The notes: generated by a model from the letters alone, not told the origin. Positions 12,920-41,613 are shown, numbered from the stretch's first letter. The stretch is DNA of 64,000 nucleotides from Candidatus Poribacteria bacterium (GCA_965198235.1 OZ240248.1:416001-480000), one strand, 5' to 3'. Program-made: numbers and translations.

Positions 12920-13052
12920 GTAGCCCGTAACGAAGTGGAGGGGTGTTTTTGCTTGGGTATTTCTGCGTATTGCTTGGGTGTTTCTTCAGATATACGGAAA
13001 GGCACTTCAATTTCCAAACCCCACTTACCGAACCGCAAGGTAAAATTAAAAT
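12920..13052 (+). repeat. GTAGCCCGTAA element, copy 2, with nested GT-rich tract
   Basis: Ends CCGAACCGCAAGGTAAAATTAAAAT directly before ATG 13053. Confidence 0.75.
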
Positions 13053-13874
13053 ATGAAAATTTCACTTTCCGTACGCGTCGCAGAAACAGCATCGAAAAGA
13101 GACGCTACGCATAGCTTCAAACAACTGACTGAACTGGCGGCAGGACTCGGCTACGAGGCGGTCTGTATGCGTGCCTCCCAAGTCGGTATCCACTCGCCTT
13201 TGGAGCAAATCACCGCCGCGCGCAAACAGGCGGGGTCGCTCAACCTGAAGGTCTCGATGATCACCGGTGATTTTCCGGTTCCCCTCAACAACGAGCAGGG
13301 ACCCGATGGACTCCGCAATATAACCCCTTATCTGGATCTAACGGAAATCCTTGGCGCGGATCTCATCCGCATTGCGATGAAGGTTGAGGCAGACATTCCG
13401 TGGGCACAACGTGCCTCCGATGAAGCCGCCGAACGTGGTATCCGTCTCGCGCATCAATCGCATACGCAGAGTTTGTTTGAAACGGTAGAGGGATCGGTTG
13501 ATGTGTTGAAGCGGGTTGGTAGAAAAAATTTCGGAATTATCTATGAACCTGCCAACCTCGACTTGTGTGCTCAAGATTACGGTGTTGAGACGCTTAAACG
13601 GTTTTCGCCGTATCTCCTCAACGTCTATCTTCAGAATCACATTCGCCGACCAGAGGGAAAGACGCGGCTCCTGACGTGGATTCAGGGTGAAGTTCCGCAC
13701 GATCCGATCCGTTTGCAAGACGAAGGTGGCATTGATTTTCCGCTGGTGTTTCGCGGGTTGGAGGCGATCGATTACAATGGGTATGTGACGGTGCATCAGG
13801 CGTTCCGAGAAATCATGGAGCCTGAAGACGCAGCCGAGCAGAGTTACACTTATCTAAAACCGTTTTGTAGATAG
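13053..13874 (+). CDS. Sugar phosphate isomerase/epimerase (xylose isomerase-like TIM barrel)
   Basis: A.LGYEAV, N.GIIYEPANL, GGIDFPLVFRGL...YNGYVTV. Confidence 0.8.
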   Translation: MKISLSVRVAETASKRDATHSFKQLTELAAGLGYEAVCMRASQVGIHSPLEQITAARKQAGSLNLKVSMITGDFPVPLNNEQGPDGLRNITPYLDLTEILGADLIRIAMKVEADIPWAQRASDEAAERGIRLAHQSHTQSLFETVEGSVDVLKRVGRKNFGIIYEPANLDLCAQDYGVETLKRFSPYLLNVYLQNHIRRPEGKTRLLTWIQGEVPHDPIRLQDEGGIDFPLVFRGLEAIDYNGYVTVHQAFREIMEPEDAAEQSYTYLKPFCR

Positions 13875-13897
13875 GGAGAGGTAGCGTCTTTAGCACT

Positions 13898-15412
13898 ATG
13901 AACGCACAGCAACCGAATATCCTGATTATTACGACCGATCAGCAGCGGACAGATAGTTTGAGCTGCTATGGATCAACGTTTACAGGGACACCACATCTGG
14001 ACAAGTTCGCATCTGAGGGTGTCTGTTTTGAACGGACATACTGTGCGAATCCAGTCTGTACGCCTGCCCGTGCCTCGATTTTTTCGGGGCGATATGTGAG
14101 TCGTCACGGCGCGTGGAATGTTGGCATGAACGTCCCTGAAGACGAACCGATGCTGTCACACCGGCTTGCCGAGGTCGGCTATCGCACTCACTATATCGGC
14201 AAGGCACACTTCCAACCTTTCGGCGCATCCGCAGCACAATCAATCGAAACTTTCAGTGATACGACACGCTACCCGGATTTCCGGGGTCCCTACTACGGAT
14301 TTGAGACGGTGGAACTGGCACTCGGTCATGCGACTTATGGTGTCGCGGGACATTACGGTGAGTGGGTGCGTTCGTGTGTTTCTGAGGAAACGTTCGCGAG
14401 TTACAGCAAAGCGACACGCCTGAGTGAAGGGGGTTTCGGTGGCGAGGCGTACGATTGGGATATACCCCTGAAATACCATAATAGCGTCTGGACAGCGGAT
14501 CGGACAATAGATTTCCTATCAAACCGAGATGCGTCTCAGCCGTTCCTATTGGCGGTCGGTTTCCAAGATCCGCATCATCCGCACTGTGTACCAACTGAAT
14601 TTGAGGCACGCGTTGATCCCGCGCAAGTCCCGCTGCCAGACTTTGTCGAAGGCGAATTGGACGATAAACCCCCGCACTTTTTAGAGGCGCGATGCGGGCA
14701 ACTTGAAAGGTCGGAGATCCGTGGAACGTTTGCTATCGCGGGACAGGGCGGCGGTGCGGATTATCGCAAAGTTTCCGAAGCCGATGCCCGACTCGGTAGA
14801 GCGTACTACTACAATATGGTGAAGATTATAGATCAACAGATGGGTCGCATTCTGGAGTGTTTGGACACATACGGATTGGCAGAGAACACGTTAGTGCTTT
14901 TCACAACCGATCACGGTGAACTTCTTGGCGATCATGGTCTCTGGATGAAGGGACCGTTCCATTACGAGCAGCTCGTCCGCGTGCCAACGTTGCTGCGATT
15001 TCCCGCAATGATTCCTGCTGGGCAGCGTACACAGGCACTGTTTAGCCATGTCGATATTGTTCCTACGGTTCTTTCCGCAATCGGTTTGCCGATCCCATCG
15101 GATACTGATGGTGTAGACGCTACACCGATGCTCACAGGTGAGACAGCATCCATCCGCGATTCGGTGTTAGTTGAGTGTGTGGACGATCCGAGCGGTTTGC
15201 GACTCAAGACAATCGTAACCGATACACGGAAGTTGACATGGTATTGTGGGCATGCTTATGGTGAACTCTACGATTTGGAGAAGGATCCGGGTGAGCGGGT
15301 CAATCAGTGGGAGAATGCCACCTACGCTGCAGATAGGATGTATCTTATGAGCCGTATTCTTGAGACGATGGAGCCTTTGGAGAGAAGGGTTGATCGGTTA
15401 TCGTATGCGTAG
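13898..15412 (+). CDS. Sulfatase
   Basis: PNILIITTDQQR, CTPAR formylglycine motif, GKAH, TDHGE, ELYDL. Confidence 0.92.
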   Translation: MNAQQPNILIITTDQQRTDSLSCYGSTFTGTPHLDKFASEGVCFERTYCANPVCTPARASIFSGRYVSRHGAWNVGMNVPEDEPMLSHRLAEVGYRTHYIGKAHFQPFGASAAQSIETFSDTTRYPDFRGPYYGFETVELALGHATYGVAGHYGEWVRSCVSEETFASYSKATRLSEGGFGGEAYDWDIPLKYHNSVWTADRTIDFLSNRDASQPFLLAVGFQDPHHPHCVPTEFEARVDPAQVPLPDFVEGELDDKPPHFLEARCGQLERSEIRGTFAIAGQGGGADYRKVSEADARLGRAYYYNMVKIIDQQMGRILECLDTYGLAENTLVLFTTDHGELLGDHGLWMKGPFHYEQLVRVPTLLRFPAMIPAGQRTQALFSHVDIVPTVLSAIGLPIPSDTDGVDATPMLTGETASIRDSVLVECVDDPSGLRLKTIVTDTRKLTWYCGHAYGELYDLEKDPGERVNQWENATYAADRMYLMSRILETMEPLERRVDRLSYA

Positions 15413-15752
15413 AGCGAGGCTGCTAAGTTGTCAGAGAATAAGAGTCGGGAATCGGAGTGTTTTTGCTTGGGGTGTTTTTGCTTGGGTATTTCTGCGTATT
15501 GCTTGGGGGTTTCTGCGGATTTCCCCCCTCCTACCGGTAGCGATTCGGAGGTCAATCCTACAGCGGAGAGCCTGTCAGCGGGAGATCGAAATTAAGGGAG
15601 AACTGAATGGATCTGATGTATCTGTTTTTAGACTTGCATTTAAAAAAAGGATTGGGTATTATTTAGGCAGAAGAAATTGATTGTGTCCAGCCTCGTTTCG
15701 ATTACATTATCTCCTACGCGAAAGAAGTGGGAAAAACATTGGGGGCATCCAG

Positions 15753-16565
15753 ATGGAGCCTACGCTATCCATTGTGATTCCGATTTACAATGAGGTTGCA
15801 AGCCTAAAGGAGCTTCTGCAACAGGTCGCCAGCGTTGAAATCGGTATGAAAAAAGAGTTGATTCTCGTTGATGATTTTTCAACAGATGGCACACGCGATA
15901 TTTTAAAGGAAATTGAAGCCATTCAAGAAAATTCAGGCGAGATGCGCAAGTACATCTCAACACCCCAGATGCCTCCAAATGAAAACGTTGCTTCTGATAG
16001 CGGTGTTCCGAAATCCGGAAGTTCCGCAGAATATACCTCTGAGATCTCCGCAAAAGTCTTTTATCACGATGTGAATAAGGGAAAAGGGGCAACACTTCGT
16101 ACTGGATTCCAGCACATCACTGGTGAAATTACCCTCATTCAAGATGCTGACTTGGAGTATGATCCAAAAGATTATCCTAAATTGCTTCAGCCTATCCTAA
16201 CTGGGGAAGCCGATGTTGTATACGGCTCTCGGTTTATGGAGGGGAGACAAATGGGGTTGTTGCGGAGTTACCTCGCAAATCAATTTCTGACGACCCTCGC
16301 AAACATCGTCAATGGCACAAGACTTACCGATATGGAGACCTGCTATAAGGTGGTCCGGACATCGATTCTAAAGGAGATTTCGCTTTACTCCGATAGGTTC
16401 GGTTTTGAGCCTGAAATTACGGCAAAACTTGCCAGGCGAAAGTGCAAAATCGTTGAGGTGCCTATCTCCTATCGCGGCAGAGACTATCATGAAGGGAAAA
16501 CGGTTAGTTGGAAGGATGGTGTCGCCGCAATTTTTCACATTCTCCGCTTCCGATTCTTTTCTTAA
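15753..16565 (+). CDS. Glycosyltransferase family 2 (DPM1-like)
   Basis: LSIVIPIYNE, VDDFSTDGT, QDADLEY, DMETCYK. Confidence 0.9.
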   Translation: MEPTLSIVIPIYNEVASLKELLQQVASVEIGMKKELILVDDFSTDGTRDILKEIEAIQENSGEMRKYISTPQMPPNENVASDSGVPKSGSSAEYTSEISAKVFYHDVNKGKGATLRTGFQHITGEITLIQDADLEYDPKDYPKLLQPILTGEADVVYGSRFMEGRQMGLLRSYLANQFLTTLANIVNGTRLTDMETCYKVVRTSILKEISLYSDRFGFEPEITAKLARRKCKIVEVPISYRGRDYHEGKTVSWKDGVAAIFHILRFRFFS

Positions 16566-16590
16566 AGGACGAAACGCACGGCGTAAAAAT

Positions 16591-18423
16591 ATGCCTAATT
16601 TGCAAGACTTGCTTAAAGAGGTAGATGCCATCCTCGATTCGGCTGATGTGTCAGAGCCGACACATGATTGCGAAACGCCGACGGATCCCCTTCTGGAGGC
16701 ACTTGATACTTCCTTCGGTTACACTTCCTTCCGTAAAGGGCAACGCGAGATTGTCAAGGCGATCTTAGATGGTGAAAACGTATTTGCTGTGTTCCCAACG
16801 GGACACGGAAAGTCGTTGTGTTATCAACTTCCCGCACTAATGCTCGACGGCGTAACGATCGTGATCTCGCCCCTCATTTCATTGATGAAGGACCAGGTTG
16901 ATACCTTGCGAGAACAAGGGATTAATTCGGTTGCGCTCATAAACAGCACACAGACATGGGAAGAATACCAGAATGAATTGGCACGCCTGAGACGCAACGA
17001 AATAAAACTGCTCTATATCTCACCAGAACGCCTTCGGAGCCGACGGTTTTTGGACATCTTGAATGCGTTTCCTATCTCGCTATTCGTCATTGATGAGGCA
17101 CACTGTATCTCGCAATGGGGACGCGATTTCCGTCCTGCCTATCTGTCGCTCAAAGACACGGTTGATGTACTCCAACCGCGCGTTATCGCACTTTTCACCG
17201 CAACAGCACCCCCAGAGATTCAAGAAGATATCCTCAATGTGCTGAACATACCAACACCTCGTATTCTCACGCAAGGGATCGAGCGCCCTAATTTGAAATT
17301 AGTCGTCCAACAGAATGAAGATGACGATGAAAAGTATCAACAACTTGAAAAGTTTCTCACCGATCAGGATCCAAATCTTTTACCAGTTCGTCTGGGAAAT
17401 CTGAAGACTTCACCGAAAAACGGGATCATCTATGCGGGACGGCGGCGAGAGACCGAAGATATCGCGGACTTTCTTCAAAGACGCGGGTTCCGAGCAGATT
17501 TCTATCACGCTGGGCTTGAACCTCATGAACGCACGCGCGTGCAAGAAGCCTTTTTCGACAACAGTGAAAACGGATTAGATATTGTTGTTGCCACGAATGC
17601 CTTCGGTATGGGTATTGACAAACCGGATATCCGATATATCGTGCATTGGACGCTTACTGGCACCCTCGAAGAGTACTGTCAAGAAGTCGGTAGGGCGGGT
17701 AGAGATGATGAGGATGCGCTATGTATCCTGCTGTTTTGTAACGATGACCGCGGGTTACACGAGTGGTTTATCAAAGAAAATGCCCCGGATAAGCAGTCTT
17801 TGCTTAAACTCTTAAAGGTCGTTGAAAATTTCAAAGGGAGCGACAGGTACCGCACAATTTCTAACGATGAGTTGGAATGGATGAGCGGTGCTAAAGGAAC
17901 AAAAGTCCACGTCTGCCTCAGTTATCTCGAAAAACTCGGATTTTTGAAGCGGTGGTATAACGTGCCGTCGCAGCTTTCTGTGAGATTTCGCGGATCTTGG
18001 GTTGAAAAAGTAGAACCAGCGGAGGCAACCCAGCGTGAATTACTTCGCCAATTGCGGGGTGGAAGATTAAAAACGATTTTAGAACTCTGTGAAGCCGTTG
18101 AACAAAACCCAAAGGTGATAATGGAAGACCTCGCCGAGTTGCAAAGCGATGGTTATATTCAGTATTGGGGACAGGAAGACTTGCTCCTCATTGAACTGCT
18201 TGAGGACAGTCAAATGCTCAGCACACTGACGGATGAGCAAATTGAGGTAGGCGACTATGTCCGCCGAAAACAGAGCCAGATTGATCAGATGGTTGTTTAT
18301 GCGTTAGAGACTACTTGCCGAATGCGCGTGATTCGAGACTATTTTGGTGAACTTGTTGATGAAAGTTACCGGTGCGGGACCTGCGATTTGTGTCAAACAC
18401 AAGCCATCAGAGTCGTCAGTTAA
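16591..18423 (+). CDS. recQ: RecQ-family ATP-dependent DNA helicase
   Basis: PTGHGKSLCYQ, DEAHC, ATNAFGMGIDKPD, QEVGRAGRD, C-terminal Zn site CR...CGTCDLC. Confidence 0.9.
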   Translation: MPNLQDLLKEVDAILDSADVSEPTHDCETPTDPLLEALDTSFGYTSFRKGQREIVKAILDGENVFAVFPTGHGKSLCYQLPALMLDGVTIVISPLISLMKDQVDTLREQGINSVALINSTQTWEEYQNELARLRRNEIKLLYISPERLRSRRFLDILNAFPISLFVIDEAHCISQWGRDFRPAYLSLKDTVDVLQPRVIALFTATAPPEIQEDILNVLNIPTPRILTQGIERPNLKLVVQQNEDDDEKYQQLEKFLTDQDPNLLPVRLGNLKTSPKNGIIYAGRRRETEDIADFLQRRGFRADFYHAGLEPHERTRVQEAFFDNSENGLDIVVATNAFGMGIDKPDIRYIVHWTLTGTLEEYCQEVGRAGRDDEDALCILLFCNDDRGLHEWFIKENAPDKQSLLKLLKVVENFKGSDRYRTISNDELEWMSGAKGTKVHVCLSYLEKLGFLKRWYNVPSQLSVRFRGSWVEKVEPAEATQRELLRQLRGGRLKTILELCEAVEQNPKVIMEDLAELQSDGYIQYWGQEDLLLIELLEDSQMLSTLTDEQIEVGDYVRRKQSQIDQMVVYALETTCRMRVIRDYFGELVDESYRCGTCDLCQTQAIRVVS

Positions 18424-18515
18424 CAGTTGTCAGTGGTCAGTTAAAGAGGTTGCTTGTGGCGGATATGGGAAACGTAACTGCCACAAGAGGTTAACTGTTA
18501 ACTGACCACTACTAA
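18415..18515. terminator. Long inverted repeat between convergent recQ and ABC permease genes
   Basis: AGTGGTCAGTTAA/TTAACTGACCACT and CTTGTGGC/GCCACAAG arms. Confidence 0.55.
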
Positions 18516-18520
18516 GTCAT

Positions 18521-19786
18521 TTAATTTTCGGTGCGGATCGCTTCAATAGGGGAAAGCTGAGCGGCGAGCATCGCGGGATAGACCCCAAAAGTGATGCCCA
18601 TGAAAATTGAGAAGATAACGGAAGTCAATATCCACGGTAAAGAGAGGACAACGGGCCATTCTGGCACAACCTGCGCAATGCGGACGGCAAGCTGCGCCAT
18701 ACCGTGTGCTGTTCCCCAGCCTCCTGCAATGCCGAGCACCGCACCACACAGACAGAGACAGATCGATTCCGTTAAGAATTGCCAGAAAATGTGAATCCGT
18801 TTCGCCCCAACTGATTTCCGTAAACCGATCTCCCGTGTTTTCTCACCGACGGAGACGAGACATATATTCATGATGCCGATGCCGCTGACAAAGAGTGAGA
18901 ATCCGGCAATACTCCCCAAAGTAATTTTTATGACTTTTTCAATGTGGTCAAGGCGTCTTGCTGTCCGTTTTGCTATCCAAAGTCCGATAAAGTCATCTTT
19001 CCCGCGGTGTCTTTTACGTAGAATGTGCTTGACCGAATCAACGATGCTGTCAATATCCTCACCTTTTTTAAAAAAGACGACCATATCTTCAAGATAACGG
19101 GTGCCTGTAATCCGTTGCTGGTATGTTGTTAAGGGCACACAAATGGCATCATCTAAAGAATACCAGATGCTGAGGCTGCGGCCCTTTGTTTTCATTACAC
19201 CCACGACCCGTAGCCTTACCGTCGCTCCGCGCCAATGATACCGAATTTTTACCTCTTGTCCAATTGGGGATTCTTCTCCAAACAGTTCAGTAGTGGTCGT
19301 GGCACCCAAGACACACACCTGCTTTGCGTTTTCGATATCGCCCTCTGAGAGGAATCTGCCGGCCTGTAGCTCCCATCTCATGCCATGTGCGTAGTCGGCG
19401 GTAACACCTTCTAAAAGCGGTCTGGCTTGGTTCCCGTTTCGGCTGGTAACGAAGGTTGTGTAGCCTTCATGTTTAGGCAGGACATATAGAACATTGGGGC
19501 ATTCTGCCTCAATCGCAAGAGCGTCCTCAAGGGTATATCGCTCGGTGGTGCGCCGAACAAGCCGTCGGCGTTTCCAAATAGAGGTCCGTGTCCAGAATTG
19601 GACTTGGTTTGCGCCGCCGAGTGTCTCGATGTCTTGGACGATAAGAAGTTTTGCACCATCGCCGATTGCGATCATGCACAGAACACTGGCAATCCCGATG
19701 AAGATACCGAGAATGGACAAACCGGCGCGGAGTTTATTTTGGGCGAGGTGTGTAATACCTGTGGTGATAGCGTCACGAAATTTCAT
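18521..19786 (-). CDS. MacB/FtsX-like ABC transporter permease
   Basis: LSILGIFIGIASV, GIGIMNI..VSV.EKTREIGLRKSVGA, GVYPA..AA.LSPIEAIR. Confidence 0.92.
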   Translation of the reverse strand: MKFRDAITTGITHLAQNKLRAGLSILGIFIGIASVLCMIAIGDGAKLLIVQDIETLGGANQVQFWTRTSIWKRRRLVRRTTERYTLEDALAIEAECPNVLYVLPKHEGYTTFVTSRNGNQARPLLEGVTADYAHGMRWELQAGRFLSEGDIENAKQVCVLGATTTTELFGEESPIGQEVKIRYHWRGATVRLRVVGVMKTKGRSLSIWYSLDDAICVPLTTYQQRITGTRYLEDMVVFFKKGEDIDSIVDSVKHILRKRHRGKDDFIGLWIAKRTARRLDHIEKVIKITLGSIAGFSLFVSGIGIMNICLVSVGEKTREIGLRKSVGAKRIHIFWQFLTESICLCLCGAVLGIAGGWGTAHGMAQLAVRIAQVVPEWPVVLSLPWILTSVIFSIFMGITFGVYPAMLAAQLSPIEAIRTEN

Positions 19787-20338
19787 TTTTTTCTAAACAG
19801 GGCGTGCGTCATGTCCTACCCGGTTTCTTGAAAAGGTTGGACAACCACACGCACTGGGAACCTCTGTATGGTAGAATCGCTATTTTTTAAGTAAATTTTG
19901 GCTTACAAGTTCTGCGAAGGAACGCCGTGAAAGACAAGGTTGTGTTAATTAGGAGAGCGGATCTCTATAAAAACTTCTACTTATACGGACATTTGGATGT
20001 ACTTTCAACGGGTTCAACGAGCTTCACTCAAGTGCTGATTTAAAGAATCGCAAGTGTTTAAACCTCGTTTTTACTTGAAAATTCATCAAAGTTTTTTTAA
20101 CTATTGGGTTTTGCGCCGATAGGTCTTACAGCCCAATCGGGTTTCCTGTATGTTTTTAGCAGTATCGGGTGTGGTTATAGGATACCTCAACCAGCAGTGT
20201 CTGTTCGGCAAATGTCTAATATATTTTTAGGCGTTGCTATCGTTATAAAGAGGCGGATTTTCGGCAAAAAGGCTTAAAAAAGATAAAAATTAGCTTTCTG
20301 GAGTATATGAAACGGGAGGAAATGGATGAAAGGCGAGT

Positions 20339-21682: not shown

Positions 21683-21885
21683 TGCATTTACACTCCTTTA
21701 GATTTTCGGTGGAGATTCAGTTACGCCCGAAACGTACAGACTGGATTGTGCGCGGATCGTGAGCAAAGATCGCTCCTACAGCAGAGTAACTATCAGCCAT
21801 CAGCAGTCAGGAAAAAAATCCCTTTGCTGACGGTTTCCGATAGCCATTCCTCTGAAAACCGAAAGCCGACGGCTGATAGCCAATA

Positions 21886-23520: not shown

Positions 23521-23727
23521 GTCTTCACCTCACTGTAGCCTCGATCTCCCGAACGAGATGTTTTTTATGGTTGCCTAACATAGCAAAAATTATCAAAAAA
23601 GGTTTAACTTTTAATTGTGTATGTGGTATGCTATTAAACACAACCTACTCGTATATCTGCTGGATAATATGATTGGCTTGCAAGCAGCCCCCTAAAACGC
23701 CGTATAACGATTGGAGGCAGTTAATTA

Positions 23728-24303: not shown

Positions 24304-24589
24304 GCAGCAAATCTTTTTGTTTTTCCCCAGCGTCTATTACCAATTTTGTCCATGTAGTTTCGATCTACAGGTTCCATCTATCACTCGGGAATTGGGGCTG
24401 CAAAAATTGTATAACACTTACCACGTTCTTCTAATATGTGTGACGTTAACAAGGGGTAAGAGGTTTACCTAAATTGCATTTTTTTTATAGTTTCGACAAT
24501 TTACTTGTGATTTTTTATAGGCGAGTAACTTTACACAGAAGCAGCGTTGTGGTTACAAGCCTCACCTATAACCCTAACACTCTTTAGGG

Positions 24590-26509: not shown

Positions 26510-26582
26510 GCCGAGTCTGTCTGTTGGGTTTCACCTTCGGTTCAACCTGGGGGAAACACCCAAGCGAAAACCCCTACTTGCT

Positions 26583-27734: not shown

Positions 27735-27884
27735 TTTTTATGGCTTTCGGCTTGCTTCGCAGTGAGAACCATCAGCGGTCAGCAAGATGGCTTTCAGCTG
27801 TCAGCCTTCGGAAACCGTCAGTAAGAGAACCTCTTTGCTGACAAAAACTGAAAGCCGACGGCTGACGGTTATTGCTGCTGACGG

Positions 27885-28751: not shown

Positions 28752-28915
28752 TTTTTTAACTATTAAGTTTTTTCTCCGATTGGTCTTACGGTTTCCCAAC
28801 CGGGTTTTCGATGCGTTTTTAGCGGCATCGGGGGTGATTAAAGGATTTATCGGTTATCAGTTGTCAGAAAGGCTTGCAATTCAGGGATCGTTTTACTTGG
28901 TAGCGAGACAGAGAG

Positions 28916-29683: not shown

Positions 29684-29705
29684 GTTATTACCCTACTTTG
29701 CAGGA

Positions 29706-31733: not shown

Positions 31734-31816
31734 ATTCCCTCCTCAAGGGTTTTTAACGATTGGGTTTTCGCTCGATTTTCTCCGTTGAAAACCGGTTTCC
31801 ACCTGGATTAGTAGCT

Positions 31817-33067: not shown

Positions 33068-33194
33068 TCTTTTTTTTTATTATTGGCCTTCGCGCTGCCC
33101 TCCATTACATTTCGGGCAGGTTTCTGATTATCCCAACTACCTTAACCTGAAACCCTCGTAAAACGTAATGGAACAAGGAGCGAAGGTCAATTGT

Positions 33195-33392
33195 TTAAAG
33201 TCCGTCGGGCAATTCCGCTTCATCGATCAGCATTACTGGGATGCCTTCACGGATCGGATAGCGACGCTGACACTCGCCGACACACACCAGTTTCTGTGCT
33301 GCTTCATCGTGTTCTATCTCACCTTTACATGCTGGACATGCGAGAATGTCAAGTAGCGTTTTTGAGAGTGTATATGCGTTTTCCGAGTTCAA
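33195..33392 (-). CDS. Trm112-family (YcaR) protein
   Basis: LLDILACPACKG...YPIREGIPVML; TTG start inferred. Confidence 0.85.
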   Translation of the reverse strand: MNSENAYTLSKTLLDILACPACKGEIEHDEAAQKLVCVGECQRRYPIREGIPVMLIDEAELPDGL

Positions 33393-33410
33393 ACTTTTAA
33401 TTATTCCTTG

Positions 33411-33645
33411 CGGTTCGGTGAGGTAGGTTGAATGACCAACGATCCTCTCCGTAGATCCGCCCTCCATTTCATTACGGGCTACAACTTTGAACCTTAATCG
33501 ATTGACACAACTCTACGGTTCGGTGAGGTAGGTTGAATGACCAACGATCCTCTCCGTAGATCTGAAGAAACACCCAAGCAAAAACCCCTCCATTTCATTA
33601 CAGGCTACAACTTTGAACCTTAATCGATTGACACAACTCTACGGT
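33411..33645. repeat. Tandem duplication (105-bp unit) of the GTAGCCCGTAA element; second copy 21 bp longer
   Basis: Units start at 33411 and 33516. Confidence 0.85.
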
Positions 33646-36466
33646 GTGAAGTCTTAGCCACCGTGGCATCTCTTATATTTCTTGCCGCTCTCTTATATTT
33701 CTTGCCGCTTCCACAAGGACAGGGTGCGTTTCTACCGACCTTAGGCGTGTTCCCCATTGCCTGTTGTGAAGCAAATTCGGCATCATCGCTGGTTGCGGCT
33801 GCGGTGCTGCCTTGAGGGTGCCTCGGCTGTGGTCTACGCTGTCTACCCGTTCGCCGACTGGGGACTCTGCGCGGTGCCTCGGTATTGACGCGAGATTTGA
33901 AGATGAACTCACTGACCTGCTCTTCAATCTGTTGATACATACTTTCAAAGACAGAGAGTGCTTCGTTTTTGAAAACGACGATCGGGTCTTTGCCGCCGTA
34001 TCCTGCGCCGAACCGAATACCTTCCTCAATATAGTCGATGTTATGGAGGTGTTCTTTCCAGTGGTCATCAATTCTATCCAAAAGGAGTAAGCGTTCGAGG
34101 ACGCGCATCATCTCTGGACCCATTTCGGCTTCGCGTTCTTCATAAGCGGCACGCAACGTCTCTAACGTCTGTTCTTGAACTTCCTCTGGACTTGCCTGTG
34201 CCAAGGGCGTTTTCCAAAGTGGCTCGATTGGGAATGTGGTCGTCAACCACTGCTGAAACCTGTCGGGGGTTTCAAGGGGACTTCCTGCTTTTTCTCCCAT
34301 ATTGTCCTCAATTGCATCTCTGACGACCCTCTCAATCATCCCCCAAATTGTCGTTTTCAGGGAGGCAGGAGTTTTAGTGTCCTTTTCAGCGAGTGCGGCG
34401 AGTCCACCATCTTCTGCTGTACCCTCGTGTTCTGGTAATTCGACGACATCTGTGGCGGAAGCGAGGACGGTGTCACGCAAGGTGTAGATGGTGTCGCGCT
34501 GTGTATCCATAACATCATCAAACTTGAGGAGATTTTTGCGGATTTCAAAGTACATCTGTTCAACACGCGTCTGTGCTTTCTCAATGGATTTGGTGACCCA
34601 CGGGTGTTCTAATGGGACATCATCATCCATTCCGACGCGTGTCATTAACCCTTGTAAACGTTCAGAACCGAATTTTCGCATCAATTCGTCTTCAAGGGAG
34701 AGGTAGAATCGAGATGAGCCTGGATCTCCTTGTCTACCGGAGCGTCCACGGAGTTGGTTATCAATACGTCGGGACTCGTGGCGTTCAGTGCCGATAATAT
34801 GGAGACCGCCGGCGGTTAATACCTTCTCTTTGTTTTTGTCGCAAATGGCTTGCGCTTCTGCAAGAGCTGCCTGAAATTCTTCGGACTCCGGGGACAGTGC
34901 CTCTGTCTTCGCTTTCTGTTTCCGCAGCGTTTCGATTGCCATACCTTCGGGGTTACCGCCAAGGAGAATGTCTACACCTCTACCTGCCATATTCGTTGCG
35001 ATTGTTACCGCACCGGGGACACCTGCTTGCGCGATGATATCGGCTTCGCGCGTGTGTTCCTTAGCGTTCAAAACCTGATGTCGGATTTTTCGGTGTTTGG
35101 TTCTGAGCATTTTGCTCAATTTCTCGGAATTTTCAATCGAAATAGTGCCGACAAGGACTGGACATCCCATTTCGGTCTGTTCGACGATATCTTGTAAGAC
35201 GGCGTTGTATTTTGCGTCCTCGGTACTGTAAATTTGGTCGGGATGGTCCATCCGGATCATAGGTTCGTTGGTAGGGATGACAGAGACCTCTAATCCGTAG
35301 ATGTGTGCGAATTCGTTCGCTTCAGTCGCGGCGGTACCCGTCATACCTGCAAGTTTGTCGTACATGCGGAAGTAATTTTGGTAGGTAATCTTAGCACCGG
35401 TTTCACTTTCCTCGACGACTTTAACACGTTCCTTTGCCTCGATTGCTTGATGGAGTCCTTCGCTGAGCCGTCTTCCGATCTGCTTTCGTCCTGTGAATTC
35501 GTCAACGAGAAGGACTTCGCCGTTTTCGACGAGATAATCGACATCGCTTTTATAGAGATGGTGCGCAGTGAGTGCTTGATTGACGTGATGCACCATAGCG
35601 ATGTTGGTATGTTCATAGAGGTTCCCCACGCCGAGACGACGTTCGACTTCCTCAACGCCTTCATCGGTAAGGGTTACACTGCCTCGCGATTTCCCCTCTT
35701 GGTCGATTTGGAAGTGTTCGCTTTCTCGGAGCTGTGCGACGACGCTGTTAATTTGCCTGTAGAGATCAGGGGGTTTACCGGAGGGTTCTGAGATGATGAG
35801 CGGCGTTCGGGATTCATCAATGAGGATGCTGTCAACTTCGTCAAGGATGGCGTAGACATGCCCGCGCTGTACTTTATCTTCAATTGAGAGTGATTTGTTG
35901 TCCCAGAGGTAATCGAATCCAAATTCGCTGTGAACGCCGTAAATGATGTCTGCCTTGTATCCGAGCCTTTTCTGTTCCTTCGGCATTAAGCTGAGCGTCA
36001 ATCCAACAGAGAGTCCGAGGAAGTTGTAAATCTTGCCCATCCATTCGGCATCACGGCGTGCGAGATAGTCATTGACGGTAGCGAGATGCACCCCTTTTCC
36101 AGTCAATGCGTTTAGATAGATGGCGAGGGTTGAGGTGAGCGTTTTGCCTTCACCTGTTCGCATCTCTGCGATGGTACCTTGGTGGAGCGCGATGCCTCCC
36201 ATAATTTGGACATCGTAGTGTCGCTGTTTTAAGGTTCGCACGGCGGCTTCACGGACGACAGCGAAAGCATCAGGTAAGAGATCATCAAGCGATGCACCGG
36301 CATCCAGCTGTCGACGAAATTCGGGGGTTTTGGATTGCAGTTGTGCGTCGGTGAGTTTTTTGTTTTCAGGTTCGCGCTGGTTGACAGCTTCGACGATGTC
36401 ACGAAACTTTTTGACATCGCGGTCCTCTTTACTACCGAAGACTTTAGTTATCATTTTTTGGAACAT
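33620..36466 (-). CDS. secA: Preprotein translocase subunit SecA (C-terminus frameshifted)
   Basis: MRTGEGKT, DEVD, TNMAGRG, RIDNQLRGRSGRQGDPG, GRNAPCPCGSGKKYK. Confidence 0.97.
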   Translation of the reverse strand: MFQKMITKVFGSKEDRDVKKFRDIVEAVNQREPENKKLTDAQLQSKTPEFRRQLDAGASLDDLLPDAFAVVREAAVRTLKQRHYDVQIMGGIALHQGTIAEMRTGEGKTLTSTLAIYLNALTGKGVHLATVNDYLARRDAEWMGKIYNFLGLSVGLTLSLMPKEQKRLGYKADIIYGVHSEFGFDYLWDNKSLSIEDKVQRGHVYAILDEVDSILIDESRTPLIISEPSGKPPDLYRQINSVVAQLRESEHFQIDQEGKSRGSVTLTDEGVEEVERRLGVGNLYEHTNIAMVHHVNQALTAHHLYKSDVDYLVENGEVLLVDEFTGRKQIGRRLSEGLHQAIEAKERVKVVEESETGAKITYQNYFRMYDKLAGMTGTAATEANEFAHIYGLEVSVIPTNEPMIRMDHPDQIYSTEDAKYNAVLQDIVEQTEMGCPVLVGTISIENSEKLSKMLRTKHRKIRHQVLNAKEHTREADIIAQAGVPGAVTIATNMAGRGVDILLGGNPEGMAIETLRKQKAKTEALSPESEEFQAALAEAQAICDKNKEKVLTAGGLHIIGTERHESRRIDNQLRGRSGRQGDPGSSRFYLSLEDELMRKFGSERLQGLMTRVGMDDDVPLEHPWVTKSIEKAQTRVEQMYFEIRKNLLKFDDVMDTQRDTIYTLRDTVLASATDVVELPEHEGTAEDGGLAALAEKDTKTPASLKTTIWGMIERVVRDAIEDNMGEKAGSPLETPDRFQQWLTTTFPIEPLWKTPLAQASPEEVQEQTLETLRAAYEEREAEMGPEMMRVLERLLLLDRIDDHWKEHLHNIDYIEEGIRFGAGYGGKDPIVVFKNEALSVFESMYQQIEEQVSEFIFKSRVNTEAPRRVPSRRTGRQRRPQPRHPQGSTAAATSDDAEFASQQAMGNTPKVGRNAPCPCGSGKKYKRAARNIRDATVAKTSHRRVVSID

Positions 36467-36543
36467 TTTTTTACCTATTTGCTCCTTGCCACCTTTCACG
36501 TTGTGAAAGGTGGTATATCTCTAAGTCATGATGGACTTGGTAT

Positions 36544-37671
36544 TTATGCCTCGTTCGTTCCCGTCAATTGCGAGCCGAGTGGCTCTAACAAATTTTGTCC
36601 GTCGAGTTTCTTTCGCACTATCGTATAAATTACCGTGTTTCCGGCGGAGGCGATTGAAAACAGGTATGCAATTACCAACCCTGCACCCATGAGGAGTGTG
36701 ATCGTCAGAAAGATAGCGGTCACTGGAGTCGTAACCGTCGCTATCCCTGTCAGTGTCGGCATTTGATCACTTGTACCGGTGTTGAAGACCCCAAGATTAT
36801 TAATATAGGGCAATGTCGCTATCTTTTCGACAGCTCCGCCGAGCCATAAGTTCGCGTAGCCCATGAATTGCTGCATCGCTTCGGTGTGGAAGAGGCGCGT
36901 CGGGAGCATCACGATTGAAAAACCTGCGAGGCAAAAGAATGCCCAAATGGGCACGAAAATCAATTTGATAAGGAGCAACATCGCCTCATAACACACTAAC
37001 AGCCAAGGTTTGTTCCAAATGATTGCGAATTGCTGATAAATTATTTCAAATGCATCGGCACCTGTCGTTGCGGCAACGGCTGGCACAAAGAGCAAACTGG
37101 CACTGAAAACGATCGCCATGAACGCCATCAGAAGACCGAGGAAAAATCCTATCGGCATGAGCAGTGAGGTGAGCATGAGGAACGGTTTTCCCACTGCTGG
37201 TAACTTCGCGATCCCCGCGATGCCGATAGGGACTATCGCGAGAAATATCTGGATGAGAAGTAAGCCGATGAATGCACCCAAAACGGATTTCCAATGTCCC
37301 TTGAGGAAGGTTAAGGCATCCCCGACCGAAAAGAAGAAATCCCCACGGAGCTGCTCGATGGTGATTTTGGAAGCCACGGTGCTTGCCAAGAAGAAGATGC
37401 ACGCGAAACTGACCATTCCTATCCACATTGCGATTTCAGTTGTCTGCGTAAGTCCTGCATCACCGAAGGGAGGTAGCGGTAGGAGTGCATACTTGTTCCA
37501 AAAGTCCTGCACGCCGGTGCCTCCTACAATGACGAGGCTGAGATATACCAAAGTTTCGTAAATTAAATATGCGAGAACGAGTCCGATGAAATGAACTGCG
37601 ATCTTTCGTCCACTGAATCCGTAGCGGATAACTTGGAAAATATCTCTGAAATCGAAGTAGCGTTTTTTCAT
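36544..37671 (-). CDS. Multi-pass membrane protein of unknown function
   Basis: 375-aa ORF with several hydrophobic helices. Confidence 0.75.
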   Translation of the reverse strand: MKKRYFDFRDIFQVIRYGFSGRKIAVHFIGLVLAYLIYETLVYLSLVIVGGTGVQDFWNKYALLPLPPFGDAGLTQTTEIAMWIGMVSFACIFFLASTVASKITIEQLRGDFFFSVGDALTFLKGHWKSVLGAFIGLLLIQIFLAIVPIGIAGIAKLPAVGKPFLMLTSLLMPIGFFLGLLMAFMAIVFSASLLFVPAVAATTGADAFEIIYQQFAIIWNKPWLLVCYEAMLLLIKLIFVPIWAFFCLAGFSIVMLPTRLFHTEAMQQFMGYANLWLGGAVEKIATLPYINNLGVFNTGTSDQMPTLTGIATVTTPVTAIFLTITLLMGAGLVIAYLFSIASAGNTVIYTIVRKKLDGQNLLEPLGSQLTGTNEA

Positions 37672-37862
37672 GAAGGGGTTCTTCTGCTTTTTTGCGTGTT
37701 CTTGTATTTAATGATACGACAATTTGGGGTATTTTGTCAAGTGTTTCTCTGGTTGTTAGTTATCAGAAGAATAGCAGTCAGCCATCAGCAGTCAGCAGAA
37801 TGGCAGTCAGCCATCAGGGTCAGTAAGAGTCGGGATTCGGATATCCCTCCTACCGTTAGCAA

Positions 37863-38573
37863 TCAGTGGGAGACGACTTTGGCGGTAACGGGGAGGGTCA
37901 GTGTTCGCTCGTTAGGAAAAGCCACAGTGAGCAGCGAGGAAAAGAGTCCTCTGTCTTTCAGGGGACCGAGTTGGACTGTAATGAGAGAGGTAGCTGTTCC
38001 CAGATCGGGGGTTATCTCCCATGTGAGTGCTTCATGTCCCGATGGTAGAAGACGGATGTCCGATGTGCGGAGTGGGGCATTCACAGTGAGTTTGATGGTC
38101 TTTTGATGCATCGTTTCGGGTCGGATGTTCCCAAACTCGCAAACGTTCGGAGTGAGTGTCGCAAATCGTTTCGCTGTGGCGACAATTGTAAGATAAACAA
38201 TCGGGGTCTTAGGGCTGTCTGTGAAGATGGTGGCGGTTGCCGAGGTCTCGTCATCGGGCAGGATTTCTGGGTTGAGGACTATTTGGAACGTGCCTTCTGT
38301 ATCCGGTGGGATTACCTCTGGTCCTGTGATTTCGGCGTAACTGCACCCTGTGTGAACTCTTTGGATGTGGAGTGGATGTTTGCCTATGTTTCGTGCTGTT
38401 AGGGATCGTGTTACAGGTCCTTCCCATTCCGGGAGCGTTCCGAAGTGAACCTGTTGCTGCGTCAGGACGAGTTCGGCTGGAGAGGCTTGCCGGTTGTTGA
38501 TGAGGAAAACAATAAGTCCAGAGACCAGCAGTATGGGAACGATGATGGTTGTGAGGATTGTGCGCTTGGACAT
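37863..38573 (-). CDS. DUF1573-domain (Ig-like) exported protein
   Basis: N-terminal TM; HFG...NIGKHPLHI..V.TGCS...IPP. Confidence 0.75.
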   Translation of the reverse strand: MSKRTILTTIIVPILLVSGLIVFLINNRQASPAELVLTQQQVHFGTLPEWEGPVTRSLTARNIGKHPLHIQRVHTGCSYAEITGPEVIPPDTEGTFQIVLNPEILPDDETSATATIFTDSPKTPIVYLTIVATAKRFATLTPNVCEFGNIRPETMHQKTIKLTVNAPLRTSDIRLLPSGHEALTWEITPDLGTATSLITVQLGPLKDRGLFSSLLTVAFPNERTLTLPVTAKVVSH

Positions 38574-39022
38574 AATTTGGCCTCGTCCTTTTGATGTATG
38601 ATAATATATTTAATCTGAAGATGCAAATTTATTTTTTATTTCGGAAACCTCGTCAGCGGCAGGACGCAGGGAAGAGGCGAGGTTGGGGAACCTCGCCAGC
38701 GGGGAGGTAGCGTGTTTTTTGTCTGAATCACGGACTGACGCGGATTACGCAGATTTCGCGGATTTTTTATTAGGCATCAGCGGCCGGTGATGGAATGTGC
38801 GGTGGTTGTCTGAACCAAGATTTACAGGATTTTCGGATTTGCAGGATTATAGAACTTTCTTGATTGAAAATTGTCCTTTATAGGATTACCTAAATATTTT
38901 ATTAAACTTCATCTGGAGTGCGACTAATCGTTCGTTGGGCGATTCAGGGATGGGAGCGGAGTGTCTGTGAGTTTTGGGTTTTGCTTGACTTTGGGTGCGT
39001 TATGTTCTATACTAATGTATAG

Positions 39023-39184
39023 TAGGACTTACGCAATTTTTCTATGAGCACCTCCGTATGACGCGCCGCTGGCGAGGTGTTTTTGCTGGGGGTTTTTGCT
39101 TGGGGTTTTTGCTTGGGTGTTTCTGTGGATTTCTGCGGATTTCCCCTAGAAACCTCGCCAGCAATGGATGTTGCGTAAGCCCTG
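39023..39184. mobile_element. MITE (TAGGACTTACGCA ends) with nested GT-rich tract
   Basis: Inverted homologue of 1217-1342. Confidence 0.7.
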
Positions 39185-39229
39185 TCAAGCATAAATGTAA
39201 CTCAAATTGACGGTTTGAAGTGGAGGAGG

Positions 39230-39931
39230 TTATCTCTGCTTGAGTTGTCCCCATATTAGGGTTAATCTTATCTCTGAAGAGACGTTCAGTCCGGAGATGG
39301 TGAAGGAATCCGCCCATGCCGCGCCGACCCATTCGTTTGCGATGTTAATACCTTCCATGACGAAACCGAGAATTTCAATCTTATCGAAGTTTGCATCTTG
39401 GAATGCTGTACGGAGTTCGCCGTCTGCGAACAGCACGAAATGCCCTGAATTAAATTGGAGTTCCACCTTTGTGAGGACATCCGTTTCCCAGCGGGTGCGC
39501 GGTTCTCTGGAGAGCCGAGTTCGGAAGGGGTGACTGCTCCCTTTACCGTCGAAACGCCTCGCTCTGATTTCATCTGGGAAAAACACGTAGAAGAACGGAT
39601 CCTCTTCCGGGGTGTCCGGAAAACGGCGTCCCACACAAAAACCGAAACGTGTTTTGTCGCCACCAAAGTCGTTTATCGTGATTGTGAAGTTTCTGTAGGG
39701 TGGTGGGAGCGCGGTGAATTGGTAGAGTTCGTATTGCACATCCCATTCCCGCTTGACTTCTGCGTGTAAGAACCCGTCGCTGATTTTCCAGATGGAATCG
39801 TTTCCGACGACTCGCCACGCTTCGGGTTTTTTCGCATCGAAATCGTCGTGCCAGATCTCGGCGGAGGTGGAAAGGGTGCAGCTAATGAGCGTATAAAGAA
39901 GTATGAGGAGTGTTGTGTTTATGTTTGGCAT
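39230..39931 (-). CDS. Secreted beta-rich (possibly ConA-like) protein, paralog B1
   Basis: Signal peptide; W.D.F...W..VGNDS.W...DGFL; tail VSSEIRLTLIWGQLK. Confidence 0.8.
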   Translation of the reverse strand: MPNINTTLLILLYTLISCTLSTSAEIWHDDFDAKKPEAWRVVGNDSIWKISDGFLHAEVKREWDVQYELYQFTALPPPYRNFTITINDFGGDKTRFGFCVGRRFPDTPEEDPFFYVFFPDEIRARRFDGKGSSHPFRTRLSREPRTRWETDVLTKVELQFNSGHFVLFADGELRTAFQDANFDKIEILGFVMEGINIANEWVGAAWADSFTISGLNVSSEIRLTLIWGQLKQR

Positions 39932-40006
39932 GGGATAGTTTTCAGCAATCAGCCGTCAGCAATCAGTAAGAGTCGGGATTCGGAGATCCCTCCTACAAGT
40001 TGACGT

Positions 40007-40750
40007 TTAGTTGATTTTTATGCAGTCGTACCACTGTTGTGTTTTCTTTCCTTTTCGACTCAAAATCCCAGGTTTGCGTTCGACTGGGGGACCGAAGTCC
40101 CTATCTTTCTGCTTCAAAACATTCCAGTCGGGTGGAAACCATGTTCTGAGGGTTTTGCAGTTGACCTCAACGGTTTCGCCCTCCCATCCGCCGATTTTGT
40201 AGTACATCGGGCAGACCCATCGTTCTGCGCCGCGGGCATACCGCCGCCAGCCGATGACGAAGGCTTGTGCTCGGATAATATTTCCGTCCCTCCAGTGTCG
40301 TTCGACTCCGCTCCACGGATAGCCCGTTGTTCCGCCTCCTATACTAATTTCATCCCATCCTAAATCGTCGCGGAGCGTAATATAGGAGAAGTTTGTGCCC
40401 CACGGCGTATCGTCTGTGCTGAAATACCACCGCTGCCCACGATACCAATGGAGCGCGCCTCGGATCCGTGAACGGGAAACCGCTGCGCTTTCGATGGTCT
40501 CTACGATGTCGAATCGACCCCTATTGTTATAGGGGTTATGAACACCGGCACAGAGCGTGAGCGAGTTGATTTCAGGTCCGAACCACGTGCCGTTTGAACC
40601 GGGAGTTCTATAATAAAACCCCGAATTCGCGGGTTGGGCGCGTTCCGCAGGGTTCAGCCTTGCTCTGGCGTAGGTGGTCCAAAACGCGATGACGAGAACC
40701 ACTACGAGTAGAAATATATCAAAAATCAGATCCAAGTTTTTTCGTAACAT
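40007..40750 (-). CDS. Exported Trp-rich hypothetical protein, paralog A1
   Basis: N-terminal hydrophobic helix; YYRTPG, WFGPEI, DTPWGT shared with A2. Confidence 0.8.
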   Translation of the reverse strand: MLRKNLDLIFDIFLLVVVLVIAFWTTYARARLNPAERAQPANSGFYYRTPGSNGTWFGPEINSLTLCAGVHNPYNNRGRFDIVETIESAAVSRSRIRGALHWYRGQRWYFSTDDTPWGTNFSYITLRDDLGWDEISIGGGTTGYPWSGVERHWRDGNIIRAQAFVIGWRRYARGAERWVCPMYYKIGGWEGETVEVNCKTLRTWFPPDWNVLKQKDRDFGPPVERKPGILSRKGKKTQQWYDCIKIN

Positions 40751-40845
40751 TTATTTTAATAGTTGTCAGTTATCCGTCATCAGTTATCGGTTAAGAGGGT
40801 TATTGTTTAAGAAAAGTTATCTTTTTATTTAATGGTTATCAGTAG

Positions 40846-41541
40846 TCAGGGCTGTTTTTGTTTCAAATTTGCCCATGTGGTTGTTAATTTCCCTTTTGGT
40901 GAGACTGCGAGTCCGTCAATCGTAAACGTGTCTACCCACGCGCTCCCTGTGTTAACGTCCTCTGTGACGAATCCGGCGAGTACAAAGGCGATGATATCAA
41001 TGTGGTCGAAGTTTGCATCCTTGAAATCGAGGCGTGATTCGCCATCCGCATTCAATTGAAATCTGCCGTCCTTGAAGTGGAGTTCCATCTGTTGGAGTTC
41101 GTCGGTGTTCCAGCGTTGTTCGGGTCCGACAAACGCGCCGCCGTCCCTTGAGGCTTGCATATCATTTGTAAAAAAGAGGTAGTAGCCGAATTCCTCTATT
41201 TCGGTCACGGGATTTCGGAAGTGTTTTGCGAGTGCGATGCCGAATCGCGCGCGCGCTGCACCGACGGTTTCAAGGGTGATTATAAAGTCATTATAGGGAC
41301 CGGGATAGGCGATGAGTTGGTAGCGTTCAAATATGACACTCCATTGGTTTTGTGCCTGAATTTCTGCTTTTAAAAATCCATCCTCGACCATCCAGACGGA
41401 ATCGTTTCCCACGTGCTGCCAGTCATCTACTGCCTCTCGTTCAAAGTGGTCTTCCCAAAAAGCGGCGTTCGTGTCCCCTTGCAAAAGGAGGAGGGTATAA
41501 ATGATGATGAAGGCTTTTAGCGTGTGTACGATGTTTTTCAT
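40846..41541 (-). CDS. Secreted protein, paralog B2
   Basis: Paralog of 39230-39931; tail AVSPKGKLTTTWANLK. Confidence 0.8.
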   Translation of the reverse strand: MKNIVHTLKAFIIIYTLLLLQGDTNAAFWEDHFEREAVDDWQHVGNDSVWMVEDGFLKAEIQAQNQWSVIFERYQLIAYPGPYNDFIITLETVGAARARFGIALAKHFRNPVTEIEEFGYYLFFTNDMQASRDGGAFVGPEQRWNTDELQQMELHFKDGRFQLNADGESRLDFKDANFDHIDIIAFVLAGFVTEDVNTGSAWVDTFTIDGLAVSPKGKLTTTWANLKQKQP

Positions 41542-41613
41542 AGGTTCGACGGGGCGAGGTGTTTTTGCTTGGGTGTTTCCCTTAAGAAACCTCGCCAGTG
41601 AATTATAATCGGG

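Follow-up and report, generated by a model that had tools for sequence, protein, structure and literature searches.

The stretch under study is a 64,000-nucleotide (nt) window of a Candidatus Poribacteria genome (window C1:416001-480000; genome G000, 5.17 Mb in two contigs, 48% G+C, in which Photo_RC had no match). Its genes include sulfatase and DUF1573 genes, and it contains six copies of a short GT-rich tract. A preliminary description had reported these six tracts, and all of them are present (Table 1). It had placed five copies inside three kinds of host repeat, which is correct; the sixth (26553) proved to be nested as well, in a fourth host, a GTAG-tagged hairpin. The four hosts said to occur also without a tract are real, and a fifth empty host, at 33412-33475, had been missed, although it adjoins a filled copy. 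The tract behaves as a separately inserted unit. It is probably a non-coding, non-autonomous micro-element of the small-dispersed-repeat (SDR) kind, with a 21-nt unit, no inverted ends and, as a rule, no target-site duplication (TSD). As such it would be hairpin-less selfish DNA and among the smallest mobile DNA elements seen.

Copy number and modular build

Within the window the 12-mer TTTTTGCTTGGG occurs nine times with at most one mismatch, against 0.65 expected, and nine or more copies were found in 0 of 100 shuffles. Genome-wide, the 11-mer core TTTTGCTTGGG has 274 exact copies where about 2.6 are expected from base composition, and the top four 10-mers of the genome all derive from the tract core. 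In a k-mer graph built with k = 9, and in a flank test based on 11-mers, background drowned the signal. A seed-and-merge scan yielded 247 tracts with at least two seeds, or 238 arrays once neighbours were merged. The plain 21-mer G[T/G]GTTTTTGCTTGGGTGTTTC makes up 129 of the 247 tracts, and the consensus of these simple tracts, G[T/G]GTTTTTGCTTGGG[T/C]GTTTC, defines a basic unit of 21 nt. Columns -4 to +16 are 88-100% conserved, except for -3 (T/G, 60%) and +11 (T/C, 78%). The four bases 3' of the 21-mer are weakly conserved as YYCA, and the flank columns from -30 to -8 and from +21 onward show 26-46% conservation. Within groups of simple tracts, core identity was 0.93-0.97 versus a flank identity of 0.25-0.68, and degenerate tracts were rare among hosts retrieved by their own flanks.

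Longer tracts are assembled from two modules, and the stuttering noted in the preliminary description is real. Array lengths include 21 nt (128 of 238 arrays), 44 nt (12), 67 nt (7) and 42 nt (7), with a maximum of 197 nt. The head unit of 13/15 nt, G(TG)TTTTTG[C/A]T[T/A]GGG, is spaced at 13 nt (91 cases) or 15 nt (46), and the tail unit of 10/12 nt, (CC)TGCGGATTTC or (CC)TG[C/T]G[G/T]ATTTC, at 10 nt (131), 12 nt (24) or 13 nt (7). Heads precede tails, and their numbers are correlated (r = 0.64, 105 complex arrays). Pure nesting would leave exactly as many heads as tails, and this was rejected, since the two numbers balance in just 34 of 116 complex tracts; 102 of 118 complex tract sequences are distinct. 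A 9-nt tail variant, CCTCAATTT, stands three times in one tract of the relative G024 (locus L139, G024:C1:1646220-1646480), and the same unit is found in G000 at C1:1321536 and 3688932. Head-to-tail units whose number varies at one locus are the mark of a minisatellite, which accounts for the growth of the tract, not for its dispersal.

Neither a palindrome nor terminal inverted repeats (TIRs) were detected in the 129 simple copies, and the combination of TIR and TSD that defines miniature inverted-repeat transposable elements is thus lacking. The tract has neither the 5' GTAG nor the CGTC tag of repetitive extragenic palindromic (REP) sequences; such tags belong to its hosts. No hairpin shared among copies and maintained by compensatory changes was found in it. 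Upon DNA folding, the flanks pair across the tract in 51 of 129 simple copies versus 61 of 129 displaced controls, so the idea that it always occupies a hairpin loop was discarded; one host family places it in a stem arm. The sole recurrent pairing of the tract is a mini-stem of its GGG with a flanking CCC, seen only where the 3' flank is CCC.

Insertion into repeats, genes and the tract itself

The most direct view of an insertion comes from two tandem copies of a leader repeat, leader A (33395-33640). Positions 33517-33562 equal 33412-33457 over 46 identical nt, 33586-33601 equal 33460-33475 over 16 identical nt, and the sole difference is CG (33458-33459) in one twin versus 23 nt (33563-33585) in the other. 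Genome-wide, a closely similar but empty paralogue exists for 39 of the 247 tracts, where the left flanks had to agree at 88% or more over at least 22 nt and the right flanks could differ by up to 4 mismatches in 24 nt. The simple copies among these are a net 20-23 nt longer than the empty paralogue, mostly 21, and 1-8 host bases are replaced, not duplicated. Orthologue alignments, which cover a handful of sites, gave the same picture. Of five genomes, three are filled at site 26553, namely G000, G024 and G018 (the last with two heads), and two, G004 and G014, are empty. At 41559, the orthologous place in G014 holds the empty hairpin CGAGGT-TAG-AAACCTCG; the G004 orthologue of C1:1555754 is an empty REP, GTAGGGG^CAGGTCTTG; and at C1:1548813 the same leader is filled in G024 and empty in G006. 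Together with the sulfotransferase, kinase and tetratricopeptide-repeat (TPR) genes described below, these sites exist in both filled and empty orthologous states, as those of SDRs reportedly do. At the 12942 and 15457 sites, relatives have other leader repeats, an empty leader or nothing: one (L100) carries an empty leader A at the place of the 12943 tract, and host plus tract at 15457 (about 190 nt in all) are missing from the intergenic space in 4/4 alignable relatives. The 38-nt core of the 12943 tract is identical to one in a second leader context at C1:1631239.

Insertion sites are strongly enriched for other repeats. Taking as a repeat flank any 14-mer present at least three times in the genome, 215 of 247 tracts have at least one such flank; for 2000 random positions the count is 953 when they are intergenic and 537 when they are taken from anywhere. 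The remaining 32 tracts have no repeated 14-mer in either flank, and most of them, judged by eye, still lie in degenerate host motifs. Sorting of the flanks by eye distinguished at least 12 host contexts. Among these are the hairpin GCTGGCGAGGT..AACCTCGCCAGC; GAGTCGGGA[A/T]TCGGAG..CCTCCTAC; CTGTAGGAGCGAG-loop-CTCGCGA; CGTAGGTTGGGTTGAAC..; GGTGCGG..CCGCACC; a REP type, CCCCAGCGGGG..ATGTCTATAGA, which also flanks three genes resembling REP-associated tyrosine transposases (RAYTs); ..AAAGCACGAGT^TGATGGTTAAC; and two leader repeats running up to start codons. Host families, sorted partly by eye, were retrieved by their own flanks and then scored as empty or filled. The GCTGGCGAGG hairpin has 116 members, of which 84 are empty (with a 6-8-nt loop), 14 carry a forward tract and 18 are long, those shown being mostly reverse tracts. 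TCGGGA[A/T]TCGGA.. has 57 (48 short, that is empty, 7 with a tract and 2 long), ..AAAGCACGAGT^.. has 23 (11 empty, 12 with a tract, none otherwise) and CTGTAGGAGCGAG.. has 52 (43 empty, 9 with a tract, none otherwise). Junctions fall into 137 classes if both flanks must match and into 29 if either flank suffices. Hosts and tract are independent of each other: the single-contig congener G052 is devoid of tracts and holds 42 GCTGGCGAGGTT hairpins.

As a rule the tracts are intergenic. Co-directional gaps hold 85 sense and 61 antisense copies, divergent gaps 37 and convergent gaps 16; orientation follows no rule with respect to genes, and the two orientations are about equal near gene 5' ends. 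No replichore or strand bias was found in G000, where the GC skew is weak. G018, a single contig, shows a skew to one strand that G000 lacks, for the tract (131 forward, 50 reverse) as well as for leader A (77:36) and for the GCTGGCGAGGTT hairpin (46:12); gene-strand bias or unequal replichores are a possible cause. On the second contig of G000, C2 (43,879 nt), leader-type hosts carry three tracts (13501, 16492 and 16565).

Protein-coding genes are also entered. Twelve tracts lie at least 150 nt inside open reading frames (ORFs) and are read through, 10 of the 12 being antisense to the gene; they encode peptides such as ETPKQKH-, KHPSKN- and NTQAKT-like. Ten of the 12 ORFs have Pfam families and an eleventh is a sulfotransferase. 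Since the 21-nt unit has no stop in any of six frames and is 7 codons long, it can be tolerated in such genes. Three of the 12 sites were checked against orthologues. In the sulfotransferase gene, an exact 21-nt in-frame insert is present in G000, G006 and G024 and absent from G014, G018 and G004 (3 of 6 filled), having decayed by several substitutions in G006 and G024. A histidine-kinase gene contains the insert in 4 of 41 genomes of the genus, the other 37 being shorter by 18-24 nt across the site, and alignment of two empty genomes shows a clean 21-nt gap, GAGAG|TTG[T/C]G|TTCGCG versus GAGAG|TGTTTTTGCTTGGGTGTTTCTCCGCG|TTCGCG. Scanning metagenomes for the two kinase-site alleles gave no match. 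The preliminary description had the tract only nested inside palindromic repeats. This is true of the window, and the in-frame inserts in the sulfotransferase and kinase genes make it wrong for the genome, where 12 copies lie deep in ORFs and 32 lack a repeated 14-mer in either flank. Its term "repeat-targeting hyperparasite" largely fits a separately inserted unit with a repeat flank in 215 of 247 cases, with the addition that unique coding DNA is entered too. The 21-mer also replaces 8 nt near the 3' end of two tnpB ORFs (OrfB_IS605) of IS605 insertion sequences, at C1:1207397-1208284 and 2575564-2576481; hence the insert either preceded transposition of the insertion sequence or the same site was struck twice.

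Inserted copies grow and take up further copies. At the kinase site, G004 has 24 nt beyond the 21-mer (45 versus 21 nt); a private GA variant common to the added head and the added tail suggests that they arose by local duplication. The TPR-repeat gene site carries a 60-nt form in G000 and a 21-nt form in G018, and the 60 nt are missing in G004. Several long forms stand unchanged in two or more unrelated settings (56 nt in three; 52, 40, 38 and 29 nt in two each), so grown copies must themselves be copied as whole units. At several loci reverse tracts are nested in forward ones (..GAAACACC|GTTTTTGC..TTTCTT|AAGCAAAAAC..). One such self-insertion, at C1:1461942, has a 5-bp GCAAA duplication and is an exception to the earlier statement that inverted repeats and a clear TSD are lacking, which holds in nearly all copies.

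The two junctions differ. On the 5' side the border of the tract is sharp and lies directly after a purine-rich end (..GG[G/T], ..GAG, often GTAG or GTAGGAGCGA), with G at -4 in 95% and at -5 in 71% of simple copies, and the tract has one orientation relative to its target. GTAG lies 0-3 nt upstream in 24 of 247 tracts versus 1.4% of control positions. In 80 metagenome copies of the exact 21-mer, the preceding four bases were GTAG in 19, GCGA of GTAGGAGCGA in 18 and GTGG in 10. At the ragged 3' junction the insert takes the place of 1-8 host bases, and the 2-6 bases following TTTC vary; right junctions in the metagenome vary even within one host family (CCCATG, CGCATG, TTGTCG and TTCGCG, all before CTCGCGA). 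From the sharp 5' and ragged 3' junctions we infer polar, primed copying. Palindrome-associated transposable elements of the IS200/IS605 type have subterminal hairpins at both ends and insert without a TSD 3' of a fixed tetra- or pentanucleotide. Of these features, the tract shows the lack of a TSD and strand-specific insertion after a G-rich end; it has no hairpins, and its target is a loose RGG[G/T] or GTAG.

Table 1. Copies of the tract and empty hosts in the window, numbered from the first base of the window.
Feature	Position	Strand	Context
Empty GCTGGCGAGGTTTGCAACCTCGCCAGC hairpin	1271..1297	not assigned	
42-nt tract (head, tail, head, tail)	12943..12984	+	within leader A repeat 12920-13052, which ends at the start codon of a xylose-isomerase-like TIM-barrel gene
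67-nt tract (3 heads, 3 tails)	15457..15523	+	within host repeat GAGTCGGGAATCGGA..CCCCCTCCTAC
Simple tract GGGGTTTTCGCTTGGGTGTTTC (minus strand)	26553..26573	-	5' foot of GTAG-tagged hairpin repeat, GTAGG..GGTTGAACCGAAGGTGAAACCCAAC
Empty tandem twin of 33563 host	33412..33475	-	CG at 33458-33459 in place of the tract
23-nt tract GTTTTTGCTTGGGTGTTTCTTCA (minus strand), replacing CG	33563..33585	-	second of two tandem leader A copies
Empty GAGTCGGGATTCGGATATCCCTCCTAC host	37827..37853	+	
67-nt tract (3 heads, 3 tails)	39077..39143	+	within hairpin GCTGGCGAGGT..AAACCTCGCCAGC
Empty GAGTCGGGATTCGGAGATCCCTCCTAC host	39970..39996	+	
Canonical 21-mer GTGTTTTTGCTTGGGTGTTTC	41559..41579	+	same hairpin family as 39077 tract; bridged by an RNA-library contig
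Empty leader A repeat (..GGAGGGCGGATCTACGG..CCGAACCGCAAGGTAAACTTAAAAA)	60571..60659	+	ends at ATG

Leader A is itself a repeat of about 100-130 nt, GTAGCCCGTAA.GAA.TGGAGGG..TACGG..CCGAACCGCAAGGAAAATTAAAAA, which ends exactly at the start codons of many genes. Its 3' 10-mers have 160-210 genome copies, and the repeat is present 113 times each in G018 and G024, nearly absent from G016 (4 copies) and absent from G052 (0). Orthologous genes of sister species have different leader repeats or none. Rfam gave no family match in the window except two tRNAs, and leader A is without a match. The repeat looks like a mobile 5' untranslated region or ribosome-binding cassette. The interval from the DUF1573 gene to the next gene (window 38600-39230) measures about 650 nt here, and five relatives have 4-8 kb of extra DNA in it, as judged from gaps between high-scoring segment pairs.

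Distribution, enzymes and rival explanations

The tract is confined to a coherent taxonomic subgroup, as SDRs reportedly are. A 19-mer (at most one mismatch) occurs in 24/24 genomes of the genus, with 9-195 copies, and in 0/16 genomes of three other families in the order. The degenerate pattern was found in 6 of 7 genomes of the genus, the congener G052 having zero; its matches in the 24 sister-genus genomes and elsewhere numbered 0-1 per strand, which is the level of the reversed-pattern control. The tract-plus-host junction is common to other Candidatus Poribacteria genomes, mostly metagenome-assembled (best 80 of 89 stretches). Metagenome contigs gave 93 matches, and viral contigs hold the 19-mer a single time, at the end of a 78.7-kb contig. 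Among enzymes, RVT_1 had no match in G000 (96% complete) nor in G018, G024, G006 and G014, all single contigs; G002 has one. Six Y1_Tnp genes are present in G000, three of IS200/IS605 type and three RAYT-like. The latter, at C1:3853757-3854101, 606918-607262 and 1898775-1899119, have REPs of type GCACCCCTACGGGGTGC..ATGTCTATAGA on both sides, and at 606 kb there are about four tandem copies of a unit of about 100 nt, each with two of these REP hairpins. Across genomes a link of the tract to RAYT or Y1 genes had to be rejected, as no correlation exists.

The unit is thus added discretely and in one orientation, directly 3' of a purine-rich end. Its targets are mostly repeats, namely GTAG-tagged REP-type hairpins, the two leader repeats and its own copies in either orientation, and protein-coding genes as well. 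A placed copy grows by local duplication of the 13/15-nt head and the 10/12-nt tail, and grown forms are copied whole elsewhere. Enzyme and mechanism we infer. The copying may be DNA-templated and polar: a free or nicked 3' end finishing in G could pair with the G run before the head in a donor copy, be extended through to a TTTC and then be imprecisely rejoined to the target. The agent may be host replication or repair (copy choice), or else a RAYT/IS200-type HUH nuclease that acts in trans. We propose only tentatively that, within a single genus of sponge symbionts, copying of the element continues to this day by polar, 3'-end-primed copy choice starting at G-rich ends such as nicked feet of GTAG-REPs.

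Several observations weigh against reading the tract as such a micro-element. A clean cut-and-paste 3' junction was never seen, neither in the empty/filled pairs nor at the kinase site. Most filled copies within a host family share one junction, and therefore much of the copy number could reflect spread of filled hosts or gene conversion, not fresh insertion. No recent insertion within a population was seen in the assembled contigs of public runs, which break at repeats; Logan contigs end at repeats, give chimeric joints between tract copies and are silent on length heterogeneity. The use of near-exact seeds inflates the apparent conservation, and genes were called crudely, as the longest ORFs of at least 120 aa. 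Of the 24 genomes of the genus, 18 have a RAYT-like gene, and so do 9 of the 16 genomes from other families, all of them without the tract; at E<=1e-10 none was found in the single contig of G024, which has the highest copy number (195). Y1_Tnp occurs in 5/5 genomes tested, including the tract-free G052.

The tract could instead be a passenger without mobility of its own, having entered rarely by illegitimate events, spread through host amplification and gene conversion and changed in length by slippage. In the ..GCACGAGT^..TTCGATGG family a single junction is common to 12/12 filled copies, and six carry an identical 40-nt tract, which is consistent with this, as are the fast turnover of host repeats between species, the lack of a transposase correlating with the tract and the local duplication documented at the kinase site. 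Such a passenger would, however, hardly leave exact 21-nt orthologue gaps at inserts in unique coding DNA without a host repeat, an identical 56-nt form in three unrelated low-copy contexts, differing 3' junctions in one host family here and in other populations, and a tract far more uniform than its hosts; we regard the explanation as unlikely. A related scenario considered in the preliminary description, descent of all copies from one ancestral composite repeat by slippage, is excluded as a full account because of the many unrelated contexts, the orthologous empty sites and the recurring 56-nt form; slippage-type local duplication does explain much of the length variation. Selection on the 21-mer as a functional motif, for example a U-rich protein-binding site or a terminator tail, with the repeats serving as regulatory cassettes, would agree with a sequence kept across 24 species, with many copies in leader repeats just upstream of start codons, with the T run that the tract provides directly after the GC hairpin in REP type CCCCAGCGGGG, and with two tracts bridged by RNA-library contigs. 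This appears quite improbable given a sense to antisense count of 85 to 61, no replichore bias, copy numbers of 0 to 195 among congeners with one closed genome having none, copies within coding sequence in both orientations, and no Rfam match in the window beyond the two tRNAs.

Two mechanistic alternatives concern the enzyme. The preliminary description had proposed iterative RNA-templated addition by a reverse transcriptase or telomerase-like activity at nicked REP hairpins. A sharp 5' junction after a G-rich end, a ragged 3' end, stuttered units and the many REP hairpin targets would suit such an activity, yet RVT_1 is unmatched here and in four of five single-contig, tract-rich relatives, G002 being the only one with a match. 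Moreover, the modal product is one discrete 21-mer (128 of 238 arrays), not an open-ended run, and long forms recur identically, which makes this route highly improbable. The check for a master template was limited to these gene searches. Transfer in trans as single-stranded DNA by a Y1 HUH enzyme, either RAYT or an IS200/IS605 TnpA, as thought for REPs and the REP doublets known as REPINs, is a somewhat doubtful alternative. E. coli TnpA(REP) requires a 5' GTAG and cuts at C|T (PMC3479197); every tail-unit boundary of the tract reads TTTC|T and so presents this dinucleotide, which is a lead only. This route would also fit strand-specific insertion without TSD or TIR, the enrichment of GTAG 0-3 nt upstream (24 of 247 versus 1.4% of controls), its abutting the 21-mer in 19 of 80 metagenome copies, and a genome that has three IS200/IS605 copies as well as three RAYT-like genes whose flanking REPs are also tract hosts. 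However, the tract has no hairpin of its own apart from the GGG/CCC mini-stem where the 3' flank is CCC, the presence of RAYT/Y1 genes does not track it, and IS200/IS605 joints are precise, unlike its ragged 3' junction. All in all, the earlier observation on the tract is partly confirmed and its interpretation partly supported.

Relation to known repeats and significance

The closest known kind appears to be the small dispersed repeats of Nostocaceae (cyanobacteria), a likeness that rests on comparing SDR1-8 by description, not by sequence. SDR1-8 of Nostoc punctiforme and relatives are reportedly 21-27 nt long and present in hundreds of copies. They are said to lie inside other repeats and mini-transposons, to be nested in themselves and to be restricted to clades, with a predicted hairpin and compensatory changes in SDR4-6. 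We know of no enzyme for SDRs, and to our knowledge the class has been described in print only from Nostocaceae. The tract shares with them the size class (21 nt here), the hundreds of copies (129 simple 21-nt copies among 247 tracts), nesting in repeats (at least 12 host families, by eye) and in itself (reverse in forward), restriction to one clade and the lack of a known enzyme. It differs in occurring in Poribacteria, not cyanobacteria, in having no conserved hairpin, in growing into head/tail arrays of up to 197 nt and in its in-frame gene insertions, documented with orthologous empty sites.

Other repeat classes resemble the tract in part. Rickettsia palindromic elements are about 100-150 nt long, palindromic, and inserted in frame in genes, where they are read through as an extra peptide; the tract is likewise a short repeat found in frame in genes, but is 21 nt long (7 codons), non-palindromic and mostly intergenic. 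BOX elements of Streptococcus pneumoniae consist of boxA-boxB(n)-boxC with modules of 45-60 nt, and they are not noted for nesting in repeats or genes. Like the tract they are dispersed and modular, the number of short internal units varying; the tract differs in module size and nesting and is presumably unrelated to them in sequence. The likeness to REPs, bacterial interspersed mosaic elements (BIMEs) and REPINs belongs to the hosts, with their GTAG-tagged hairpins, three REP-flanked RAYT-like genes and BIME-like mosaics with extra motifs between palindromic units (PMC3116915, PMC3479197, PMC3733652). The tract, by contrast, is non-palindromic, lacks a GTAG of its own and does not co-occur with a RAYT gene; it is a guest in REPs, not a REP. 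A search of the literature combining Poribacteria with these repeat terms found no paper on dispersed DNA repeats in Poribacteria.

Elements this small probe the minimum that a DNA sequence needs to spread in a genome. In the present case the unit has no palindrome, expands into arrays and shows dated in-frame insertions in ordinary genes. With dozens of closed genomes of one genus holding from 0 to about 200 copies, a natural comparative system for finding the mechanism is at hand. In practical terms, short-read assemblies break at tract sites, leaders differ in length just upstream of start codons, and annotation pipelines will take protein inserts of 7-20 residues as real sequence. If the proposed polar copy choice is true, bacterial replication or repair alone would propagate a specific sequence, a "transposon without a transposase", and the element would seed modular arrays and new Lys/Pro/Gln-rich protein linkers.

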